Part shown: positions 1 to 41,090 of the stretch, piece after piece
How the letters are laid out: each line of letters starts with the position of its first letter
How positions within the stretch are numbered: position 1 is the stretch's first letter
IMG/VR virus record: IMGVR_UViG_3300012919_000005
Location: 1 to 64,000 of that record
Reading direction: 5' to 3' (one strand)
From: a virus
DNA length: 64,000 bases
Made by a program: the position numbers and the translations under genes
The notes under the pieces: generated by a model
Databases searched by the model: none
What the model was told of the DNA's origin: nothing
Seen by the model: the letters and a program-made list of their open reading frames with translations, nothing else

Positions 1-3000
1 GCTGCTTTTAAGTTAGTTCCTGCTCTAGCACCTACAGTAGCACTTGCCTCTATGCCTGTTAGCTTACTATTCTGTGCTGAGTCTAATGAATTTAAATCAC
101 TTAGGCCGACATTACCTTTGTTAAATGCCTGTGTATCAATAACTGTGCTACCTTTTTTAATCCTAAAAGTTGTGTTGCCTGTAAAATCTACAGATAAGTC
201 GCTGTTCCTTACATCTTCATCACCTAAACTAGCACCACCACTATCTTTTAAATTTGTTCCTGCTACAGCTCCTAGTGTAGCTCCATCTTCGGGTAAAGTT
301 GTTGCAAATAATTTTCCTGTTCCAACTACATTGCTAGATACTATTTTATCATTTGAAAGCACTACGCTATTAAATGCAGAGTTTGCTCCTGTTATTTTAC
401 CATTTCCATCTATACTAATTGTTGAGTTTTTAAGAGTACTTGGTACAGTATCAGTTGAATTAGTATCTCCTGCTTTTGTAAGTGTAATGGTAGTTCCATC
501 TAAAGTAATGCCTAAGTCACTATTTAAGAATTTATTTGTATTTGTTTCGCCAGTACCACCTTTACCTGTAGGCACTGCTCTGTTTACATCTCCATTTGCT
601 GCTAATCCTGCAAAGCCTCTGGCTGCTCCAGTTTTAGTATTTCCAGAGTCAACTATATTATTTATATTTGGTGCTACTGCTGTTGTGCCATCATAGTTTA
701 TTGTACCGTCTGCATTTGTTGTTATCCTATCATTGAATAGTTGTGTTGCACTTGTAACTTGGTCAAATCCTGTGTCATTTACATCAGGTCTTATTTTGAT
801 TCTTCTATTTGTATCATCTATTTCTATTCTAAAATCATCTGGAGGTAGTCTTAACCAACTTGAAACTCCTCTTACAGTATCAAAAGTTACACTACCATCG
901 CCTTCTCTAAAGCTAAATCCTGAAACAGCATAAGGTGGTAAAGGCTTGGATAGACTCCAGCCACTTGTTAAACCAGTTAAAGATTTAGTAGAAAATACAA
1001 AAGCACTTGCAGTTGGAGTACTTGGTAAAGAACTAGTACCATTCCAAGCACTAAAATATACATTACCTTTTACAAACTGAGGAGAGTCGGCAGGAGCAGA
1101 AGTTACAAACTGATCTGCTAATGTATAAGCTGTGCTTCCATTTGTGGTTATTCGTGCAAGTATAAAGTCTGAATTTGTATCTGGTATAAAGCTTTGTTTA
1201 AAATATTCAGCTTCATTATAAGGTCTATTTGTTGTTTCATCTAAAAATAATAAAGTGTCGCTTTCTACAAATCTTACCCTAGCATATGTAATTAAAGGTG
1301 TAAAAGTTAAAGTAACACCACTATTTATTGTTTGTTGATTTGATAAAGTTAAACTTGTTCCACTAATTTCTGAGACATGGCATGGATTAATTATTCCAGT
1401 TCCTGTTACTGTTTGACCAACTTTTATATTACTATTTGTACTAGAAAGAGTAACTGATTTAGAATTTGTAATAGAGCCGCTTGTTGTTCTAGTAGTACTA
1501 CTTCCACCAGCTATTCTAAATAAATCTCCTGCTATAAAATCAGACTCAAAAGAAGTTCCTGTACCATTTACTTGATTTGAAAATTGATTTATTTGTATAC
1601 TACCACTTCCTGCTGTTAGACCATTATTAGAGGCTCCTACTTCTTTTATGTAGTTTATTGATGGAGTACTTCCACTATCTGTATGTACTTGTATTGCTTT
1701 TAATCTATCTGTAGATTCGCTTGTATCAAAAAGTAAAAATGCTTCTGCACTTGCTCCCATACCTGCAAATGCTTGAGTATGAGTAGCAGAATTGCTATTA
1801 GTATTAGAAAATATAGAACCATCTGGAGAAGTCATTGTATAAGTGCTGCTTCCAAGAGAAACTGTACCATTTGCTGCTAAGCCAATTGTTTGATTTACTT
1901 CACCACCTCTTTGTATTTGTTCTAATCTTGATTTTGTTGGTGGAAGTAATTCTCTTTCTGTAATAGTTACTTCTCTTTGTAAAAATGGAGAAACTGTTCC
2001 AATACTTGATTTAGTTCTAATTTTTACTCTATATGTTCCTGCTGAGACATTATTTACATTTAAGGCTTGTTCTGAAGAACCTACGAGTTCTACAGTTTTT
2101 GAATTTAAAAAATCATGTTGAATTTCAAATCCATTACAAAATTTATACTTTGCCCCGTTTTCTTGTGGGTAATCCCATGTAATAACAACTTTGTGTCCTG
2201 TAAGAGTTCCATCATCTGTAGATCCATCAGTATCTTCTGTAGTTATTGGTTGAACATTTATAACTATATTTCTAGGAGAAGGAACTATATCTTCTGGATC
2301 AGGCATTGTTTTTAGAGGCCTAGGAGCAATATTGTAACCTCTCTCTATTTCTAAAAATTTATTTTTGTGGTAAAGTGACCCTGTTATTTCATACAGAAAA
2401 TCATCTTCTTCATTTACTGTTATTACTCTATATTCTTTTGCAGTTCCTGTTTTTACAGTACCATCAGTATTATAAAGTTTTAATGCCCATATAACTTCAG
2501 CATTTGGCACAGAACTAAAAGCACTTGCAACTGTTAAAGAATTTACATTTCCTGCTGAAGTAGTAACTCTTTGTCTTTCTACCCTAGTATTTTCTGACCA
2601 TACAACATTTATTGGATTATTACTGTCATCTTTGGCATTGGCTGCTGCTGTTGAGCTGGTAATACTTAGTATTAAATCTCCCTCAAAGAAAGTTGTGCCA
2701 CCAATTATTGCACTTTCTTCTTGTAAGTATGCTCCACCGCTTGGATAAATTAAATGAAGCTCATGTTTAAAATTACTATTATATGCAGGAAGAGAAATTG
2801 TTCTATCTAAAGGAATTACTGTAGTTGATCTTGTTCCAGAATTAGATACACGACCAGAGTAAGAAGATCTATCTCTGTCTGCATCTTGTACAAGTATTAT
2901 ATCTCCAGGTTTTAAACTTGCAGCATTTAAAGAAGTTGAAAAAGATACTGTTTCATTTTCATTTTGTTCACTTAGTAACTTCCACTTTCCTAATCTATGC

Positions 3001-5198
3001 GCCTGTCCTCTTGAGGTACACCCAAAAGCTAGTTGTTCTGACCTTACAATTCTTCCTGTATCCGCTATAGAGTCATAGTCTTCTACGTATTCTGTTGACT
3101 GTCTAAAATTGTCATCTGGGTCGTTCCAAGTTACTTTTACCTGATTAGTTCTAACTCTATCTCCTGTTCCTTCATAGTTAAATTGACCACCTATAATATT
3201 ACCTTTTGTAAATTGAAAAACAGGTTGTTTTGGTCTGTCTACTGCAACAGTAAGGCTCCCTTCATTCCATAATGCAATCCCTCTAAAAATACTAGCAAAT
3301 TGTTTTAATACTGTTGTTGCTTCTGCACCTTTTCCTAGATATACATTACAAGTAAATCTAGGTTCTGTTCCACCATTTCCATCGGGAACTAATTCGTCAC
3401 AATATTTTGCAATTCTAAATAGCTCGTATATATCTATTTGAGACTTATCAATAAATTGCCCAATACCGTATCTTTCATTAGTTAGTAAATCATAAAATAC
3501 CCAAACTGGATTATCGCAAAAAACTTTATTATGATTAATAGAAGATTCATTAAAAGTATTTACATCTCCTCTAAAATTTCCGTCCCAGTTTTGATAAGAG
3601 CTTTCTGTTGCTCCTGTGCTTACATTTCTTGTATACGAAGCAGCTGTTCCTGTTTCTTCACGAGTACGGTAATTTGTTGGAACTTGAATTTTTAATCCTT
3701 TTAAAGTAAAGGATCTTTCAGGAAGTTGACTATTAAAATCTTTTGCATTAAATGAAGTTGCCGCGTAAGCACTATGAGGATAAGAAAACTTATCTTTAAC
3801 TATAGATTCTACAGTTTGTAGTGTACAAGGATTTGTATGTTGAAAAGAACTATCTTTAAAATTTAAATCATTTATTCTTCTAATACGAATTCTCCAATCA
3901 TCATAAGGTTGGAACTGTTCTGTATTTATTACAAATTCTTCTACAAAACTAGTATATTGAGGAGAGTCTGGTTTAATTTGACCATTATTTATAAAATTAA
4001 ATCCTGAAATAAATGCATTAATTCCTTCAGAACGATTAAGTATATCATTATCAGAATCACCAAAAGCTAACGCGCTAATAGGAAAACTAGAGCCTCCATC
4101 TGTACTAAATTCAAAGAATATCTGTAGTTCAACAAAAGAAGGACCTTTTGCTCCACTACTACTTTTTAATGCGTGACACTGTGGAAAATTAAAAGTTAAA
4201 TGAATTTCATCTACTTCACTAGGGTTAGATACACCTAAAAATGCTGAAGTTAGTAGAGTATCTGCTGCTGTTCCTTGATTTTGACTTTCTTCATCTATTT
4301 CTGCATCATTATAGTTTCCACCGTTTTTAGCAGCATTACCTGTTGTTCCAATGTTTGCTCGAATGTTATTTTGTAACATTTCTATATTTGGACTTGCAAT
4401 AATTGAAGATTGCCCAAAATTAGTATTTAAAATTATAGGGTCTTGACTAATAGTTCCTGTTGCTAAACTAAATCCAAAGTTTTCAATATTACATAAACTT
4501 TCAAGTTTAGTTTGACTTATATCTGCGCCGGAGATACTTACAGGAGTTCCAGTAAGTGTTACACCCGCATTTGCGAACAAAGTTGCAGTATTTCCTGAGA
4601 TGCTTGCTATTGTAGTAACTAAATCTACATGTAAGTCTTTATTTGATACTGTTGTTGAAATAGGCTGAGAAGTTCTAATCTGTGTAGAACTGATAAAAGT
4701 TGCTTTTGTTACTAAAGTTGAACCTGAAGGTCCTGCTCCTTCTAATCTTACAAAACCTTGAATCTTATTATTAAATAGTTGGTTTATCATTGCAGTAGTA
4801 AAAAAACTACTACCTGTTGTTATTATATTTGTATCGGCAGTTGCACTTGCATTTGTTGCTTTTGCTAATGCAGATTGTACTACTACATGTCTTGTACCTA
4901 ACCTTAAACCTGATAAGTTATCTAAAACTAAATCATCTATTTCTCCGAATTGAACATGAGAAACTTGATTAGATCCTGAGGTAGTATTCGAAGTTGCGCC
5001 TCTAAATTTTATTATTTCATTCGCAGTTTTGTCAAATACTGGAATATCATTAATAAATACAGAAGATAAACCATTTGCTAAGCCTTCTATCTCGCCTTCA
5101 CTTAATAAATCGTAAGTAACAGCTACCTGACTTTTATCTGGTTTCTTTCTATCTGTATTAGTTTTTACTCCAAAAGGTACTGAACTATATCTTGCCAT
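1..5198 (-). CDS. Central tail fibre / host-specificity protein J-like (TipJ), runs off the window edge
   Basis: ATG at 5198 overlaps the upstream stop. N-terminus ...VTYDLLSEGEIEGLANGLSSVFINDIP is typical of gpJ. Internal CDNPVWVFYDLLTNERYG, EPRFTCNVY and AFGCTSRGQAHRLGKW motifs. Absent from the ORF track, consistent with no stop inside the window. Confidence 0.9.
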   Translation of the reverse strand, partial: MARYSSVPFGVKTNTDRKKPDKSQVAVTYDLLSEGEIEGLANGLSSVFINDIPVFDKTANEIIKFRGATSNTTSGSNQVSHVQFGEIDDLVLDNLSGLRLGTRHVVVQSALAKATNASATADTNIITTGSSFFTTAMINQLFNNKIQGFVRLEGAGPSGSTLVTKATFISSTQIRTSQPISTTVSNKDLHVDLVTTIASISGNTATLFANAGVTLTGTPVSISGADISQTKLESLCNIENFGFSLATGTISQDPIILNTNFGQSSIIASPNIEMLQNNIRANIGTTGNAAKNGGNYNDAEIDEESQNQGTAADTLLTSAFLGVSNPSEVDEIHLTFNFPQCHALKSSSGAKGPSFVELQIFFEFSTDGGSSFPISALAFGDSDNDILNRSEGINAFISGFNFINNGQIKPDSPQYTSFVEEFVINTEQFQPYDDWRIRIRRINDLNFKDSSFQHTNPCTLQTVESIVKDKFSYPHSAYAATSFNAKDFNSQLPERSFTLKGLKIQVPTNYRTREETGTAASYTRNVSTGATESSYQNWDGNFRGDVNTFNESSINHNKVFCDNPVWVFYDLLTNERYGIGQFIDKSQIDIYELFRIAKYCDELVPDGNGGTEPRFTCNVYLGKGAEATTVLKQFASIFRGIALWNEGSLTVAVDRPKQPVFQFTKGNIIGGQFNYEGTGDRVRTNQVKVTWNDPDDNFRQSTEYVEDYDSIADTGRIVRSEQLAFGCTSRGQAHRLGKWKLLSEQNENETVSFSTSLNAASLKPGDIILVQDADRDRSSYSGRVSNSGTRSTTVIPLDRTISLPAYNSNFKHELHLIYPSGGAYLQEESAIIGGTTFFEGDLILSITSSTAAANAKDDSNNPINVVWSENTRVERQRVTTSAGNVNSLTVASAFSSVPNAEVIWALKLYNTDGTVKTGTAKEYRVITVNEEDDFLYEITGSLYHKNKFLEIERGYNIAPRPLKTMPDPEDIVPSPRNIVINVQPITTEDTDGSTDDGTLTGHKVVITWDYPQENGAKYKFCNGFEIQHDFLNSKTVELVGSSEQALNVNNVSAGTYRVKIRTKSSIGTVSPFLQREVTITERELLPPTKSRLEQIQRGGEVNQTIGLAANGTVSLGSSTYTMTSPDGSIFSNTNSNSATHTQAFAGMGASAEAFLLFDTSESTDRLKAIQVHTDSGSTPSINYIKEVGASNNGLTAGSGSIQINQFSNQVNGTGTSFESDFIAGDLFRIAGGSSTTRTTSGSITNSKSVTLSSTNSNIKVGQTVTGTGIINPCHVSEISGTSLTLSNQQTINSGVTLTFTPLITYARVRFVESDTLLFLDETTNRPYNEAEYFKQSFIPDTNSDFILARITTNGSTAYTLADQFVTSAPADSPQFVKGNVYFSAWNGTSSLPSTPTASAFVFSTKSLTGLTSGWSLSKPLPPYAVSGFSFREGDGSVTFDTVRGVSSWLRLPPDDFRIEIDDTNRRIKIRPDVNDTGFDQVTSATQLFNDRITTNADGTINYDGTTAVAPNINNIVDSGNTKTGAARGFAGLAANGDVNRAVPTGKGGTGETNTNKFLNSDLGITLDGTTITLTKAGDTNSTDTVPSTLKNSTISIDGNGKITGANSAFNSVVLSNDKIVSSNVVGTGKLFATTLPEDGATLGAVAGTNLKDSGGASLGDEDVRNSDLSVDFTGNTTFRIKKGSTVIDTQAFNKGNVGLSDLNSLDSAQNSKLTGIEASATVGARAGTNLKA

Positions 5199-34967: not shown

Positions 34968-35126
34968 ATGAAAAACGAAAAAACAATCGAAAAGGTCAAA
35001 AGACCAAACAAGAAAGTTTTATTACGCGAGATTGCTGACATGACTGGCAAAAGCATCAGAGACCTTGATAGCTTAGGAAGAAGCAACATCAGCACAATCG
35101 AATGGGTAAAAGAACTTGTGTCCTAA
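34968..35126 (+). CDS. 52 aa protein resembling the A2-like C-terminal domain
   Basis: KKVLLREIADMTG...DLDSLGRS resembles KNEIVNDIASLL...DIASLEKA of the 36122 ORF. Confidence 0.55.
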   Translation: MKNEKTIEKVKRPNKKVLLREIADMTGKSIRDLDSLGRSNISTIEWVKELVS

Positions 35127-35699
35127 TTTCTGAAGTGTAAGCGACTTTATTACTCAACGCTAGACATCGGTCCCTATTGGCACGGGACGGTTGTCCGCTT
35201 TTGCGCGCCGATTTTACCACATCTATTCTAGCTTGTCAATACCTGCGTGAAAAATAATTCAACTTTTTTATTTGCTAAGTCTCCCTAAAACAAGGGTCTT
35301 GCCGACCTTCTCGCAAATCCCCTACAACCCCCATTCTTACTCACTTCGCAAACCTTATAAAATAGGGTTCTCCAGTGATAGTAAGTACTAACTATGCGAA
35401 GACCATGGCACAAGTGTTTCAAAGGTAGCCGCCCCGCGCGCCCAAGTGCGAAAACGATAAGTGCCAAAGTGGTGAGCCTGCGCCAATAAGTGCAAAACTG
35501 GTAAGTGCTAGGTCTACTTTAGTGGGCAAGTGGCCGCCGCGAGTCTAGAATAAGTCTTATTTATATTGTATCATGCTTTTAAAGACTTGTCAAGACTTTT
35601 GCTGACTTGCGCCGACTTTTTTAAGGCTTTGCTACGGTTTCGCGTCCGGCCCCCGAGAATTCCTTTGCGTAAGTTTATTAATATTTCTTTTGCATTTGC

Positions 35700-35728
35700 T
35701 TGACACTACATCAATAGCTTGATATAAT
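35700..35728 (+). promoter_or_regulatory. Sigma70 promoter of a putative ncRNA
   Basis: TTGACA-17-TATAAT. Confidence 0.85.
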
Positions 35729-35738
35729 ATATACATAA

Positions 35739-35873
35739 TTTGAAGTGAGGAAACCACCGAACACCAAAAGCGACCTACGGGTCGAGAGAGTAGAAGTGAT
35801 TCGCTGTAGGAATTGAAGCTATACGGCAAAGATTCAAAAAAATGTTGGCAGTCTTCCCCGAACTCGCTTTAAA
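35739..35873 (+). ncRNA. Putative ~135 nt structured ncRNA
   Basis: Closing stem TTTGAAGTGAG/CTCGCTTTAAA (2 G-U pairs); CGACC-TACG-GGTCG hairpin. Confidence 0.6.
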
Positions 35874-35915
35874 TTATACTTGACAAGACAATGTCAGCGT
35901 GATATAATATTAAGT

Positions 35916-36032
35916 ATGAAACAGAAAAGATTACCGAAAAAAATGACTGCCGAGATGAAACTCGTAATAGTAAATCTAATAGCCATTGGAGTAGGAGTAG
36001 CAATACTGATATGGGACACATGGTTAAGGTAA
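35916..36032 (+). CDS. Leaderless 38 aa membrane peptide
   Basis: Promoter at 35880-35908; MKQKRLPKKMTAEMKLVIVNLIAIGVGVAILIWDTWLR. Confidence 0.55.
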   Translation: MKQKRLPKKMTAEMKLVIVNLIAIGVGVAILIWDTWLR

Positions 36033-36121: not shown

Positions 36122-36451
36122 ATGGCATCAGCTAAAAATTACACAGATGAAATGGTCAACACAATGACCGAACAATACCAAGCTAATCCGACAAGGGAAA
36201 CTGTTGACGCACTAGCAAGAGAATTTGGCAAAACTACAAGAAGTATTATTGCTAAGTTATCAAGAGAAGGCGTATATGTTGCTCAACCAAGAACAACAAA
36301 AACAGGCGAGCCTATCGTTAGCAAAAATGAGATTGTCAATGACATTGCTAGCCTTCTACAAGTTGAAGTTGATGACATCGCTTCTCTTGAGAAAGCAACA
36401 AAGATTGACCTCAGAAACTTAGTGGAAAGACTCGAAGCAGTCGTTCAGTAA
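36122..36451 (+). CDS. T5 A2-like DNA-binding protein
   Basis: Promoter at 36057-36085, AGGAG RBS; RSIIAKLSREGVY...DDIASLEKA. Confidence 0.65.
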   Translation: MASAKNYTDEMVNTMTEQYQANPTRETVDALAREFGKTTRSIIAKLSREGVYVAQPRTTKTGEPIVSKNEIVNDIASLLQVEVDDIASLEKATKIDLRNLVERLEAVVQ

Positions 36452-36516
36452 GAAAGTGATGAGGTAGTGTTAAAACTACCTCGCCACAGTCAAGATAACC
36501 TCGTTAAAAATAGTTC

Positions 36517-36545
36517 TTGACAAAAGGTTATTAGCGAGATATAAT
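36517..36545 (+). promoter_or_regulatory. Sigma70 promoter of a putative ncRNA
   Basis: AAAAATAGTTC-TTGACA-17-TATAAT. Confidence 0.85.
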
Positions 36546-36569
36546 ATATCTTATAAAATAAAAAAAGAA

Positions 36570-36700
36570 CAGTAGTGAAACTACGCAGACAATGACCAAC
36601 ATTGCGTAGTTTGAAAGTGGTAAACCTACTCTAGCTATGAAAAATACCCTATCACATAGCAGATAGTGCACTTTGGGAAAGTGGCGGGATTTAACTACTG
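36570..36700 (+). ncRNA. Putative ~130 nt multibranch ncRNA
   Basis: CAGTAGT/ACTACTG closing stem; AAACTACGCA/TGCGTAGTTT, GCTATG/CATAGC and CACTTT/AAAGTG arms. Confidence 0.6.
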
Positions 36701-36725
36701 AGCTCAAGAAAGTGAAAAATAGTTC

Positions 36726-36754
36726 TTGACAAAAGGTTAAAAGCTTGATATAAT
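36726..36754 (+). promoter_or_regulatory. Sigma70 promoter of the large ncRNA
   Basis: AAAAATAGTTC-TTGACA-17-TATAAT. Confidence 0.85.
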
Positions 36755-36760
36755 ATACAT

Positions 36761-37567
36761 ATCAAAAACAAAAAAAACAAGGGGATTTCTGACTCGCCAA
36801 GCAAGTAGTAATCTGAGCATTAGCCAGCATCACTACAGCGAGAGTCAGAAACCACGAGAGGCATCTCATTAAATATTGCCGTATGCTCTTTCAATGATTA
36901 GAGGGACACGATATCAGAGTAAATCATTCGACAGTTGCAGGTTGCTAGTAGTTAACAGATTCACGGAAGAATAAGGGAACTAGCCGTTTTAACTCAAACG
37001 ATAAGGAGTAAGTGCAATACTACAGCAGTAAGTGTGTAAGTGCGTAGTCTCAACCGATTCGGTAGCAGACATAAGAAGACCTTCTCACGAGGGCAAAGCC
37101 GACCAGTTAGCCTGTAGTTCCCACTTCTCGAGCAGTTTGTCGAAACTTAAAAACCTACGGGATTACGCAGTATTACAGTAGTAAAACAGTAAATCTTCGC
37201 GTGATTGACACCAGATACAGCGATAATATCAGGGAGTGTTTAGTAGCAAAACGCTTCGGTCATCAAGTCCTGCAGATGTAGGAAACGACAGATAAAGGTG
37301 AACTACCATAAGAACGGCATCTCTATCTCTAGTGTAAAAGTGATGATTGTAAAGAGACGCTATAGTAGACAAATGACTTCTCGAACATCATTTGAAGTTT
37401 GCTAGAGTTCTTTACCAAACTAGCACTTTCAACCTAGTGTAAAAGGTGTAGGTTTTTAGGACGCTATTGTAATAAAATGCCGACCTACTGCACGACAAAG
37501 GAGTAAACTTTCTAACTGTGTAAACAGATTAAGTTTGAAGGGCGACTCTTCGGAGTCGTCTTTTTTT
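36761..37567 (+). ncRNA. Putative large (~800 nt) structured ncRNA
   Basis: Own promoter and terminator; no ORF of 60 aa or more on either strand; many local and long-range helices. Confidence 0.7.
37538..37567 (+). terminator. Intrinsic terminator
   Basis: GGCGACTC-TTCG-GAGTCGTC plus T7. Confidence 0.9.
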
Positions 37568-37668
37568 GTCTCAAATGCAGATATCACAAAATTTCAAGGT
37601 TAATTTAAAAAAGTTCTTGACAAACAACTTAACGCTTGATATAATATATAGTATAAAAAGGAGAAAAA

Positions 37669-38016
37669 ATGGATATATGGACAATGCTTAAACAAATTGA
37701 GAAGTCTGGAGACTGCTTAATTTATGGAGTGCTAGAGATACAAGGTGTAGCAGAAGATTTATCTGGCTGGCCTGAGTTCGATAGTAGTGAACCTATGAGC
37801 CACTTATATCTCATGGATTCACAGGACATACCAAAGCAACTTATGTTAGATGCCTTTCAAGTAGCATACAACAATACAAGTTGCGAGTATGACTCTTACA
37901 ACAATATGCTAGAAGCAGTTGGAGAGTATATAATAGAAGAATTAAAAAAGAAGCAGTGCGTATGTGGAACAATAGATTGTGAAGATGCATATGGCTGCGT
38001 AACACACGGAGTATAA
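37669..38016 (+). CDS. Hypothetical early protein with C-terminal Cys/His cluster
   Basis: Promoter at 37617-37645, AGGAG RBS; CVCG...C...C...H. Confidence 0.7.
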   Translation: MDIWTMLKQIEKSGDCLIYGVLEIQGVAEDLSGWPEFDSSEPMSHLYLMDSQDIPKQLMLDAFQVAYNNTSCEYDSYNNMLEAVGEYIIEELKKKQCVCGTIDCEDAYGCVTHGV

Positions 38017-40066: not shown

Positions 40067-40323
40067 TGACTGAGTATAGTGAAAGAGTAGTAAAACGAGC
40101 TAAAGAAATAGCTGCTGAAGCTTGGGCAGGTAAAATAAGGGATATTCATATGCACAGGCTAAACAGTATGTGGTATGAGCCAGAACCTGATGTTGCTAAA
40201 GACCAAGGCGTGACTGATATAACCTACAATAGTGGTAAAATTACGAGAGATGGTAAGACGATTGTAGAGGGAGTAACTGGAGAAGACCTAATATCAAAAT
40301 GGGAGAAAACGAATGAATTATAG
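40066..40323 (+). CDS. Hypothetical protein
   Basis: TAATG-coupled ORF. Confidence 0.6.
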   Translation: MTEYSERVVKRAKEIAAEAWAGKIRDIHMHRLNSMWYEPEPDVAKDQGVTDITYNSGKITRDGKTIVEGVTGEDLISKWEKTNEL

Positions 40324-40639
40324 TAAAGAAATGACGCTAGATATGGTGAGTTGTTATAAGGAAGCTCCAAACCGTGCCACCGTTGCGATTCTCGCAGAAA
40401 GGTATGGCAAGTCGGAGAAGTCAATAATTGGAAAGCTATCTAAAGAAGGTGTGTATCAAAGGCAAGAGTATAAAACAAAAGCTGGAGAGAAGCCAATAAC
40501 AAAGGCTGAGATAGTAGAAAATCTAAGTGGAGAACTGAACGAAAATTTGAGTGGGCTAGAGAAAGCTCCGAAAGAAGTATTAAAACGATTGTGGTTTGCA
40601 CTAGAGGAATATAGATGGAGGGCAATATGCGAAGACTAG
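40313..40639 (+). CDS. A2-like DNA-binding paralog
   Basis: NYSKEM...KSIIGKLSKEGVY...LEKAPK aligns with the 36122 ORF. Confidence 0.7.
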   Translation: MNYSKEMTLDMVSCYKEAPNRATVAILAERYGKSEKSIIGKLSKEGVYQRQEYKTKAGEKPITKAEIVENLSGELNENLSGLEKAPKEVLKRLWFALEEYRWRAICED

Positions 40640-40894: not shown

Positions 40895-41090
40895 AATGAA
40901 AGACCGATTGCATGTTAGTAGTCGGTCTTATATATTATTTATTTAGATTAAAACTGTTTCTCTCGGTTTTTGCTCTCGTTTCATCTCTAGTCTCTTCTTC
41001 GCTTACGCTCGAAGAGCCTTAGTCAAAGATAAATCGAGAAAACCTTCGAGAGGAAAGAGATTACAATTACTAAAGTAATTAATATAATTT
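40895..41090 (-). ncRNA. Putative rod-shaped ncRNA or origin-associated hairpin
   Basis: Promoter TTGCTT-17-TATAAT at 41097-41125; long bulged hairpin 40957-41056 with a GUAA loop; terminal hairpin 40900-40929. Confidence 0.45.

Follow-up and report, generated by a model that had tools for sequence, protein, structure and literature searches.

A large structured non-coding RNA, probably of a new family, encoded by uncultured marine relatives of phage T5

Positions 36761-37571 of the window, by which we mean the whole 64,000-nt stretch of DNA analyzed here, probably hold the gene for a free-standing non-coding RNA of about 0.8 kb that is transcribed from the + strand and represents a new RNA family. 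We put the probability of this reading, together with the explanation offered below, at roughly 70%. On comparative sequence analysis, we regard the existence and conservation of the gene, the fold of the RNA, and the strand assignment as established. As judged by the searches described below, the family is previously undescribed and restricted to a single clade of uncultured marine T5-like siphoviruses. An earlier, sequence-only reading of this DNA had proposed a large structured phage RNA, possibly of a new class, and this is borne out by more than 100 syntenic homologues, covariation, G-U pairs, pseudoknots, contigs from RNA libraries, and the absence of a match in Rfam 15. The RNA is longer than 500 nt, non-coding, phage-encoded, and built of many covarying helices that include pseudoknots, and some of its loci have tRNA neighbours; we conclude that the feature is real and is a new RNA family of the general kind of large ornate phage RNAs.

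The window corresponds to the initial 64 kb of an IMG/VR virus record of 75.5 kb (G000), which encodes a T5-like tape-measure protein, tail fibre, fused protease and major capsid protein, DNA polymerase, and DnaB-type helicase. Since the capsid protein is only about 33% identical to those of Yersinia phiR2-01, Proteus PM135, and Vibrio VCPH, and the DNA polymerase reaches at most 45% identity, the predicted proteins place the source phage as an uncultured, distant relative of the Demerecviridae. The - strand carries late genes as far as about 31 kb, early genes lie on the + strand starting at 32 kb, and the genome around the RNA unit is gene-dense. Seven perfect TTGACA-17-TATAAT promoters are found on the + strand between 34.5 and 37.7 kb. 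While tRNA islands are typical of cultured T5-like phages, there are no tRNA genes in the window or anywhere in the 75.5-kb record, and a few relatives carry 1-4 tRNAs (Glu, Ala, Asp, Gly, Thr, His). The gene upstream of the RNA unit (36122-36451, 109 aa) has a weak PHROG match to "DNA-binding / D5-like". Searches of the small flanking proteins with Pfam and PHROG found no RNA-binding domain, the upstream gene giving that weak signal and one to IF2_N.

The unit has the hallmarks of an independent bacterial-type transcription unit, a sigma-70 -35/-10 pair with 17-nt spacing at one end and a GC-rich hairpin with a U-tract at the other, and both signals are conserved across relatives. The promoter that had been read by eye at 36726-36754 (+ strand, TTGACA-17-TATAAT) matches the consensus at 12 of 12 positions and has an extended TG. 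The same cassette stands ahead of the homologous unit in 117 of 117 related loci, these loci being defined by that cassette. Downstream of it is the A-rich leader that had also been noted, an unpaired initial transcribed region at 36761-36785 (+ strand) that we take to resemble the initial transcribed sequences of strong T5 promoters; unit starts are rich in purines and in A in all relatives. The cUUCGg terminator of the earlier reading was recovered by a terminator scan at 37537-37571 (+ strand) as a 12-bp stem with a UUCG loop and a U7 tract, and its stem is compensated in the relative L088. The next gene (37669) has a perfect promoter of its own downstream of this terminator.

Between these signals (36761-37567), neither strand has an ORF that reaches 60 aa, in agreement with what had been remarked about this gap in a gene-dense genome. 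The + strand ORFs of the unit are 22-49 aa long, use GTG or TTG starts, and lack a ribosome-binding site, with the longest, of 49 aa, beginning at a GTG. In relatives that are 93-96% identical, indels of 1, 4, and 6 nt fall inside every one of these short ORFs. The + strand folds with a minimum free energy of -212 kcal/mol (z = -3.8 relative to 20 shuffles), compared with z = -2.7 for the - strand.

The upstream gene has about 600 relatives each in IMG/VR and in the JGI metagenomes, and the best 80 from each were used. Iterated nhmmer searches from the unit of the window found homologous DNA 0.3-1 kb downstream of this gene, always on the same strand. Nearly every locus shows the same layout, with the gene followed by a promoter, a short unit of 80-300 nt, a promoter, a 0.6-1.3-kb unit that lacks a conserved ORF, a terminator, a promoter, and the next gene. 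Altogether, 117 marine phage loci contain a promoter-to-promoter unit of 624-1271 nt (median 991 nt) after the same small gene, one per locus and on the strand of that gene. The longest + strand ORF in these units has a median of 50 aa, and a hairpin followed by a T-run closes 85 of the 117. Clustered so that different groups have less than 30% of their 15-mers in common, the units form 69 groups.

A scan with the core pattern, which does not rely on the upstream gene, recovered the same phage contigs and three new ones, and the upstream gene was present in all those checked. The same pattern matched once in 185,579 prokaryote genomes, in a Syntrophomonadaceae MAG; we take this match as chance because it lies inside a 335-aa ORF and is not accompanied by a model match. 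A covariance model of the core matched 44 of 81 IMG/VR sources at E < 0.01, and a second-round model added about 10 IMG/VR loci. In the metagenomes, the second-round model matched 33 of 80 loci, a set in which many sequences do not extend far enough to include the RNA. These model matches are all on the + strand and occur once per locus, including once in the record of the window itself. For the most distant members, recognition is limited to model positions 69-112, which comprise GUGAUUGAC, helix Pd, and the Pd pseudoknot, and by k-mer analysis the other subfamilies have recognizable variants of both the 5' and the core motif. All matches are in viral or marine metagenome contigs with T5-like genes. 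Near-identical DNA is present in runs from 10 marine or aquatic studies, and the family has a broad distribution in the ocean, with occurrences in Tara and many coastal data sets.

The promoter-dense zone around the unit has several other features. The stretch at 35130-35700 is GC-rich and without an ORF, contains AAGTGC and GCGC repeats and leftward consensus promoters, and is conserved more widely among relatives than the large RNA (144 nhmmer hits); this stretch may be another RNA or else a DNA element, for example an origin or an injection-stop signal. Promoter cassettes at 34969-35126 and 35915-36031 drive very small genes, whose products are a 52-aa protein that looks helix-turn-helix-like by eye and a 38-aa hydrophobic peptide, and the promoter array therefore serves RNA genes as well as small genes. 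A second promoter-driven unit, about 160 nt long (36553-36715), lies directly upstream of the large RNA; nhmmer found it in nearer relatives only (9 hits), and the equivalent short unit of other loci is 80-300 nt long and different in sequence. A paralogue of the gene preceding the large RNA (43% identity) lies at 40313-40639, as it does about 4.8 kb downstream in relatives, and 3' of it an ORF-poor stretch extends to a terminator at 40900-40929.

Covariation among the homologues, a check that the earlier reading had called for, is abundant in the 5' domain, where both sides change in 24 of 30 pairs in an alignment of 24 sequences (36855-37008). Standard pairs occupy 97.2% of the cells of this alignment, compared with 73.8% in column shuffles and 27-48% with partners slid, and the covariation score is 0.63 versus 0.21. 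The domain opens with the closing helix P1 (36786-95/36842-51, + strand), which encloses a hairpin at 36801-36838. This helix had been proposed by eye, and it holds up: L091 carries a compensatory U>C / A>G change, and other subfamilies close the site with unrelated complementary sequences, compensatory variants among them. P2 (36856-36867, + strand) is a GAGA-GGCA-UCUC hairpin, 100% paired with 3 of 4 pairs covarying, whose loop GGC is invariant, as is a downstream GCC (36878-80). The 24-sequence alignment then shows a pseudoknot of two crossing helices at 36880-36928 (+ strand). The first pairs 36880-82 and 36886-88 with 36901-03 and 36908-10 and has both-side changes in 3 of 6 pairs. The second pairs 36893-97 with 36924-28 and has them in 5 of 5, which upholds the covarying part of the AATGATT/AATCATT helix seen by eye.

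Further 3', P4 (36944-50/36978-84) and its inner helix P4a (36959-62/36969-72) together span 36944-36984 on the + strand, with 7/7 and 3/3 pairs covarying and 99% and 92% of cells paired. The P5 hairpin CGUUU/AAACG (36985-89/36996-37000, + strand) also covaries. These strongly covarying helices displace the pairing of AGTTAA (36950-55) with TTAACT (36989-94) that had been suggested. The domain is followed by a variable linker with TAAGTG repeats (37001-37128, + strand), which is poorly aligned and rich in indels (alignments A2 and A3). Many pairs of both the 5' domain and the core alternate G-U with A-U or G-C. Since G-U pairs would be A-C mismatches on the other strand, the RNA fold is assigned to the + strand.

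The central core (alignment of 37125-37255) is paired in 92% of cells, compared with 77% in shuffles and 23-47% when slid, and it holds two pseudoknots. Hairpin Pa (37134-38/37143-47, + strand) forms a mini pseudoknot in which G37139 and U37140 of its loop pair with A37153 and C37154; across relatives, pair 37139-37154 is AU in 9, GC in 9, and CG in 6. Helix Pb (37166-70/37195-99, + strand; by eye, alignment A5) has one C-U mismatch in the window, and its variants in relatives, GUAU/AUAC, GUGU/ACAC, GUUGC/GCAAC, and CGCAG/CUGUG, were read by eye and not formally counted. The universal part of the core (37200-37233, + strand) consists of the conserved GUGAUUGAC (37201-09) and helix Pd (37211-17/37227-33), which contains a conserved A-A (or G-A) mismatch. 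Here 37200-02 form a pseudoknot with loop bases 37220-22, with a pair that is GC in 11, CG in 9, and AU in 4 sequences, or GC/CG/AU in 12/17/4 in a model-based alignment. That alignment, of 33 distinct sequences, gives the same core pairs, including the Pa mini pseudoknot. The core ends with hairpin Pe (37235-41/37249-55, + strand), in whose place most relatives have GUG-AGGAAAC-CAC. A hairpin of the same GUG-AGGAAAC-CAC sequence occurs at about 35745 in the window, within a 135-nt promoter-to-promoter unit (35735-35879), which suggests that modules move between RNA units.

The 5' domain and core are joined across the variable linker by a long-range contact, in which P5 loop bases 36993-95 pair with 37130-32. 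This contact is paired in 94% of cells, compared with 79% in shuffles and 9-59% when slid, and 3 of its 4 pairs covary. Long-range structure is thus present, as the earlier reading had supposed, though at another place than it had proposed. The contact it drew between GGGAACTA and TAGTTCCC retains the GGAA/UUCC core alone in near relatives and shows no compensatory change. Seven helices had been read by eye, of which four stand (P1, 36893-97/36924-28, the GNRA hairpin, and the terminator stem) and three do not, these being the short one displaced by P4 and P5 and both of those with a range of 300-400 nt. In the helix 37148-58/37448-58, changes in L007 break the pairing and compensate the local helix 37448-53/37483-88 instead. 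In the helix 37143-50/37529-36, positions 37143-47 pair locally with 37134-38 by covariation, and L007 alters three bases while the proposed partner is unchanged. When whole units were aligned globally with MAFFT (1853-3061 columns), no other reliable long-range helix emerged, the other candidates lying in gap-rich columns.

The 3' region is mosaic and fast-evolving, and covariation support for the 3' half comes from near relatives only. The hairpin CCUGC-AGAU-GUAGG (37269-37282, + strand) has a G-U to A-U change in L007 and a larger loop in L088, and its support is weak because only near relatives align there. A helix of 37437-41 and 37448-53 with 37483-93 (37437-37493, + strand) has three compensated pairs between the window and L007/L088. 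In the MFE fold, a helix of 37505-10/37531-36 (37505-37536, + strand) surrounds the GNRA hairpin at 37516-27. This CUGU-GUAA-ACAG hairpin, another of those seen by eye, is compensated in L088 (CUGC/GCAG), and its GNRA loop is retained in L007.

A mobile hairpin at 37296-37322 (+ strand) presents an invariant 19-nt loop, GAACUACCAUAAGAACGGC (37300-18). The loop is identical in 15 distinct, otherwise diverged RNAs (the window and L011, L013-L017, L056, L083, L091, L096, L117, L118, L157, and L163), at varying positions on either side of the core, and the stems that carry it are unrelated in sequence and covary (0.94 versus 0.25 in shuffles). The closest relatives, L007 and L088, have a different sequence where the window has this hairpin. 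No consistent intramolecular partner of the loop was found. A duplex between the loop and bases 4-20 of an adjoining tRNA-Glu(UUC) is predicted at -15.1 kcal/mol, compared with -9.6 +/- 2.4 in shuffles (z about -2.3). In a minority of loci, tRNA-Glu adjoins the unit or, in L016, sits inside it, and tRNA-Glu(UUC) genes adjoin it only where the invariant loop is present. Among the representatives, 3 have loop and tRNA, 8 the loop only, none the tRNA only, and 58 neither (Fisher about 0.003 without phylogenetic correction). These numbers suggest a weak tie between the invariant loop and tRNA-Glu.

Contigs from three metatranscriptome libraries (two studies) cover the unit, with ends, strand, and level not given and DNA carry-over possible. 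Single contigs span 36224-37427 and 36855-37489, and one extends past the terminator into the next genes. One contig of run X17 stops at 37427 and continues with 24 A, and in two other runs the contigs change to a variant sequence at 37425-37428; position 37427 may mark a 3' end with a poly(A) tail or a breakpoint of recombination between strains. The k-mer depth of contigs over the unit, which is not an expression level, is 439-1213 versus 6-111 in X4 and about 50 versus 3-11 in X17 and X18. Parts of a 12-kb stretch have no RNA-library contigs, and this likewise cannot be read as an expression level. The runs had been chosen by their match to the examined stretch itself. Since the contigs lack strand, ends, and level and the runs were preselected, we do not count the higher depth over the unit as evidence.

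Comparison with known RNAs gave no assignment to a described family. As the earlier reading had advised, we searched Rfam 15, and at the gathering score no family matched in the whole window, GOLLD, ROOL, OLE, raiA, HEARO, IMES, RNase P, tmRNA, and introns included. With E values up to 10 (queries of 3.5 kb and 831 nt), there were chance-level matches only, of at most 20 bits and to unrelated families. No RNase P RNA, tmRNA, tRNA, or group I or II intron was recognized in the unit by Rfam models or ARAGORN, and an Rfam scan of eight relatives returned one tRNA and nothing else. In a set of 50,697 phage records, neither blastn in a distant mode with 36500-37700 nor tblastn with the upstream gene gave a match, and the core covariance model found nothing in T5, VCPH, and PM135 (best E = 0.8). 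A search for antisense targets in the window gave five shared 13-mers on either strand, about the chance number, and does not point to a base-pairing regulator. A literature search found no description of the large RNA.

We propose that host sigma-70 RNA polymerase transcribes the RNA from the unit's own promoter, which is of the T5-type consensus, and stops at the unit's own terminator. The RNA would comprise a 5' domain (P1-P5 and a pseudoknot), a variable linker, a core tied to that domain by the loop contact, and a fast-evolving 3' region with exchangeable hairpins. Action in trans is suggested by the unit's own terminator, the separate promoter of the next gene, and the lack of an antisense target in the genome, and expression early in infection by the T5-type promoter. 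A conserved core with swappable, invariant-loop hairpins points to a scaffold on which binding sites for a conserved partner are displayed. During the early phase of infection, the RNA might act in trans as a rigid scaffold, with invariant loops that hold on to a conserved macromolecule of host or phage. The most likely source of this partner would be the tRNA or translation machinery, with the RNA serving as a decoy or sequestering RNA, and defence systems are an alternative target of such a decoy. Its niche would then be that of the tRNA islands and large RNAs found in other phages. The decoy role is favoured by analogy with the T5 tRNAs, counter-defence RNAs that neutralise PARIS (PMC11464382), and with the tRNA-associated GOLLD and ROOL (PMC12286853). 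The restriction of adjoining tRNA-Glu genes to units with the invariant loop, weak as that tie is, also fits it. We offer this early, trans-acting scaffold or decoy role, with a partner from the tRNA or translation machinery, tentatively, and rate it somewhat short of an even chance. A more specific version, in which the pseudoknotted core is a modular adaptor whose interchangeable hairpins capture a specific host RNA, is unlikely on present evidence; the loop at 37300-18 would then pair with the 5' part of tRNA-Glu and be used early against tRNA-directed defence or to reprogramme translation.

Other explanations differ in what the RNA would do or whether it would remain whole. It might work alone, as an RNA-only homo-oligomer in the form of a cage or ring held together by kissing loops and A-minor contacts, like GOLLD and ROOL. 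The size class, phage origin, pseudoknots, linker between conserved domains, and tRNA neighbours are as in those RNAs (PMC12286853). However, the unit has no sequence or structure match to the GOLLD and ROOL families, no conserved self-complementary loop was found, and the covarying loop contacts are explained intramolecularly, and we think an oligomer doubtful. The unit might also be a precursor from which cleavage releases several smaller stable RNAs, in the manner of the T4 and T5 clusters of tRNAs and small RNAs, rather than the gene of one large functional RNA. Mobile modules, a 3' region that evolves independently of the core, the tRNA-Glu inside the unit in L016, and the contig end at 37427 with its 24 A, possibly an internal 3' end that was polyadenylated, would all fit such processing. 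The covarying contact that joins the 5' domain to the core across the linker, the closure of the 5' domain by P1, and RNA-library contigs that run unbroken over 36224-37427 and 36855-37489 speak instead for one molecule, and a precursor seems quite unlikely.

A replication or DNA-level element, either an origin-priming transcript (as ColE1 RNA II or the T4 and T7 origin transcripts) or protein-binding DNA repeats near an injection-stop or terminal-repeat zone, would suit the promoter-dense, partly non-coding zone adjoining the widely conserved GC-rich repeat region, and the TAAGTG repeats of the linker. Strand-specific pairing with G-U pairs, several pseudoknots, and a dedicated terminator are not what such an element would call for, the conserved parts have no AT-rich unwinding element or repeat array, and the GC skew does not switch here; we consider this reading very improbable. 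We give hardly any credence to the idea that the unit is a small-peptide messenger, the remains of a gene, or a long leader through which the next gene (37669) is regulated. Although the + strand does have short ORFs of 22-49 aa, none combines an ATG start with a ribosome-binding site, frameshifting indels separate relatives that are 93-96% identical, substitutions are compensatory rather than codon-like, and the next gene has its own perfect promoter past the terminator.

The family is large, with at least 117 loci, 69 diverse representatives, and clean gene boundaries, and the covariation is already sufficient to guide the design of SHAPE and cryo-EM constructs. The invariant-loop hairpins provide a concrete handle toward identifying the partner. 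A T5-like clade without a tRNA island spends about 1 kb of its early region on an RNA. To our knowledge, only a few bacterial or phage RNAs longer than 500 nt with elaborate conserved folds have been described. Each of these has opened new biology or a new RNA architecture, and the cages of GOLLD and ROOL were solved in 2025.

Among smaller phage RNAs, the stable RNAs of the T4 and T5 tRNA clusters are non-coding, early transcripts of strong promoters in virulent coliphages, lie beside tRNA genes, and have no known function; they are about 100-140 nt long, compared with 800-1200 nt for the large RNA family. The phi29 pRNA is also a phage-encoded structured RNA with an early promoter and acts in trans as a machine part, but it is about 170 nt long and from another phage family, and nothing ties the large RNA to packaging. 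The likeness to 6S RNA, CsrB/RsmZ, and defence-neutralising phage tRNAs (PMC11464382) is in the proposed mode only, that of an abundant RNA displaying binding sites that are repeated or invariant, and is a functional conjecture; unlike 6S and CsrB/RsmZ, the large RNA has no 6S-like bubble or conserved GGA repeats.

The closest parallels are GOLLD and ROOL, phage RNAs located near tRNA islands (PMC12286853). ROOL is an ornate phage or prophage RNA with several pseudoknots, a poorly conserved linker, and no known protein partner (PMC12286853). The large RNA is likewise ornate and phage-borne, with several pseudoknots and a poorly conserved linker, but it is longer than ROOL and lacks an Rfam match. 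GOLLD is a phage RNA of about 800 nt or more with a conserved and a less conserved part, many helices and pseudoknots, marine members, and a function that is not known (PMC12286853). The large RNA resembles it in size, phage origin, conserved and variable parts, pseudoknots, an occasional adjoining or internal tRNA, and marine members. It differs from GOLLD in having no Rfam match even at E = 10 and in its conserved motifs and helix order. It also belongs to virulent T5-like phages, while GOLLD is found in prophages of Lactobacillales or mycobacteria, and in every case the large RNA has a consensus promoter and a terminator of its own and comes after the same particular gene.
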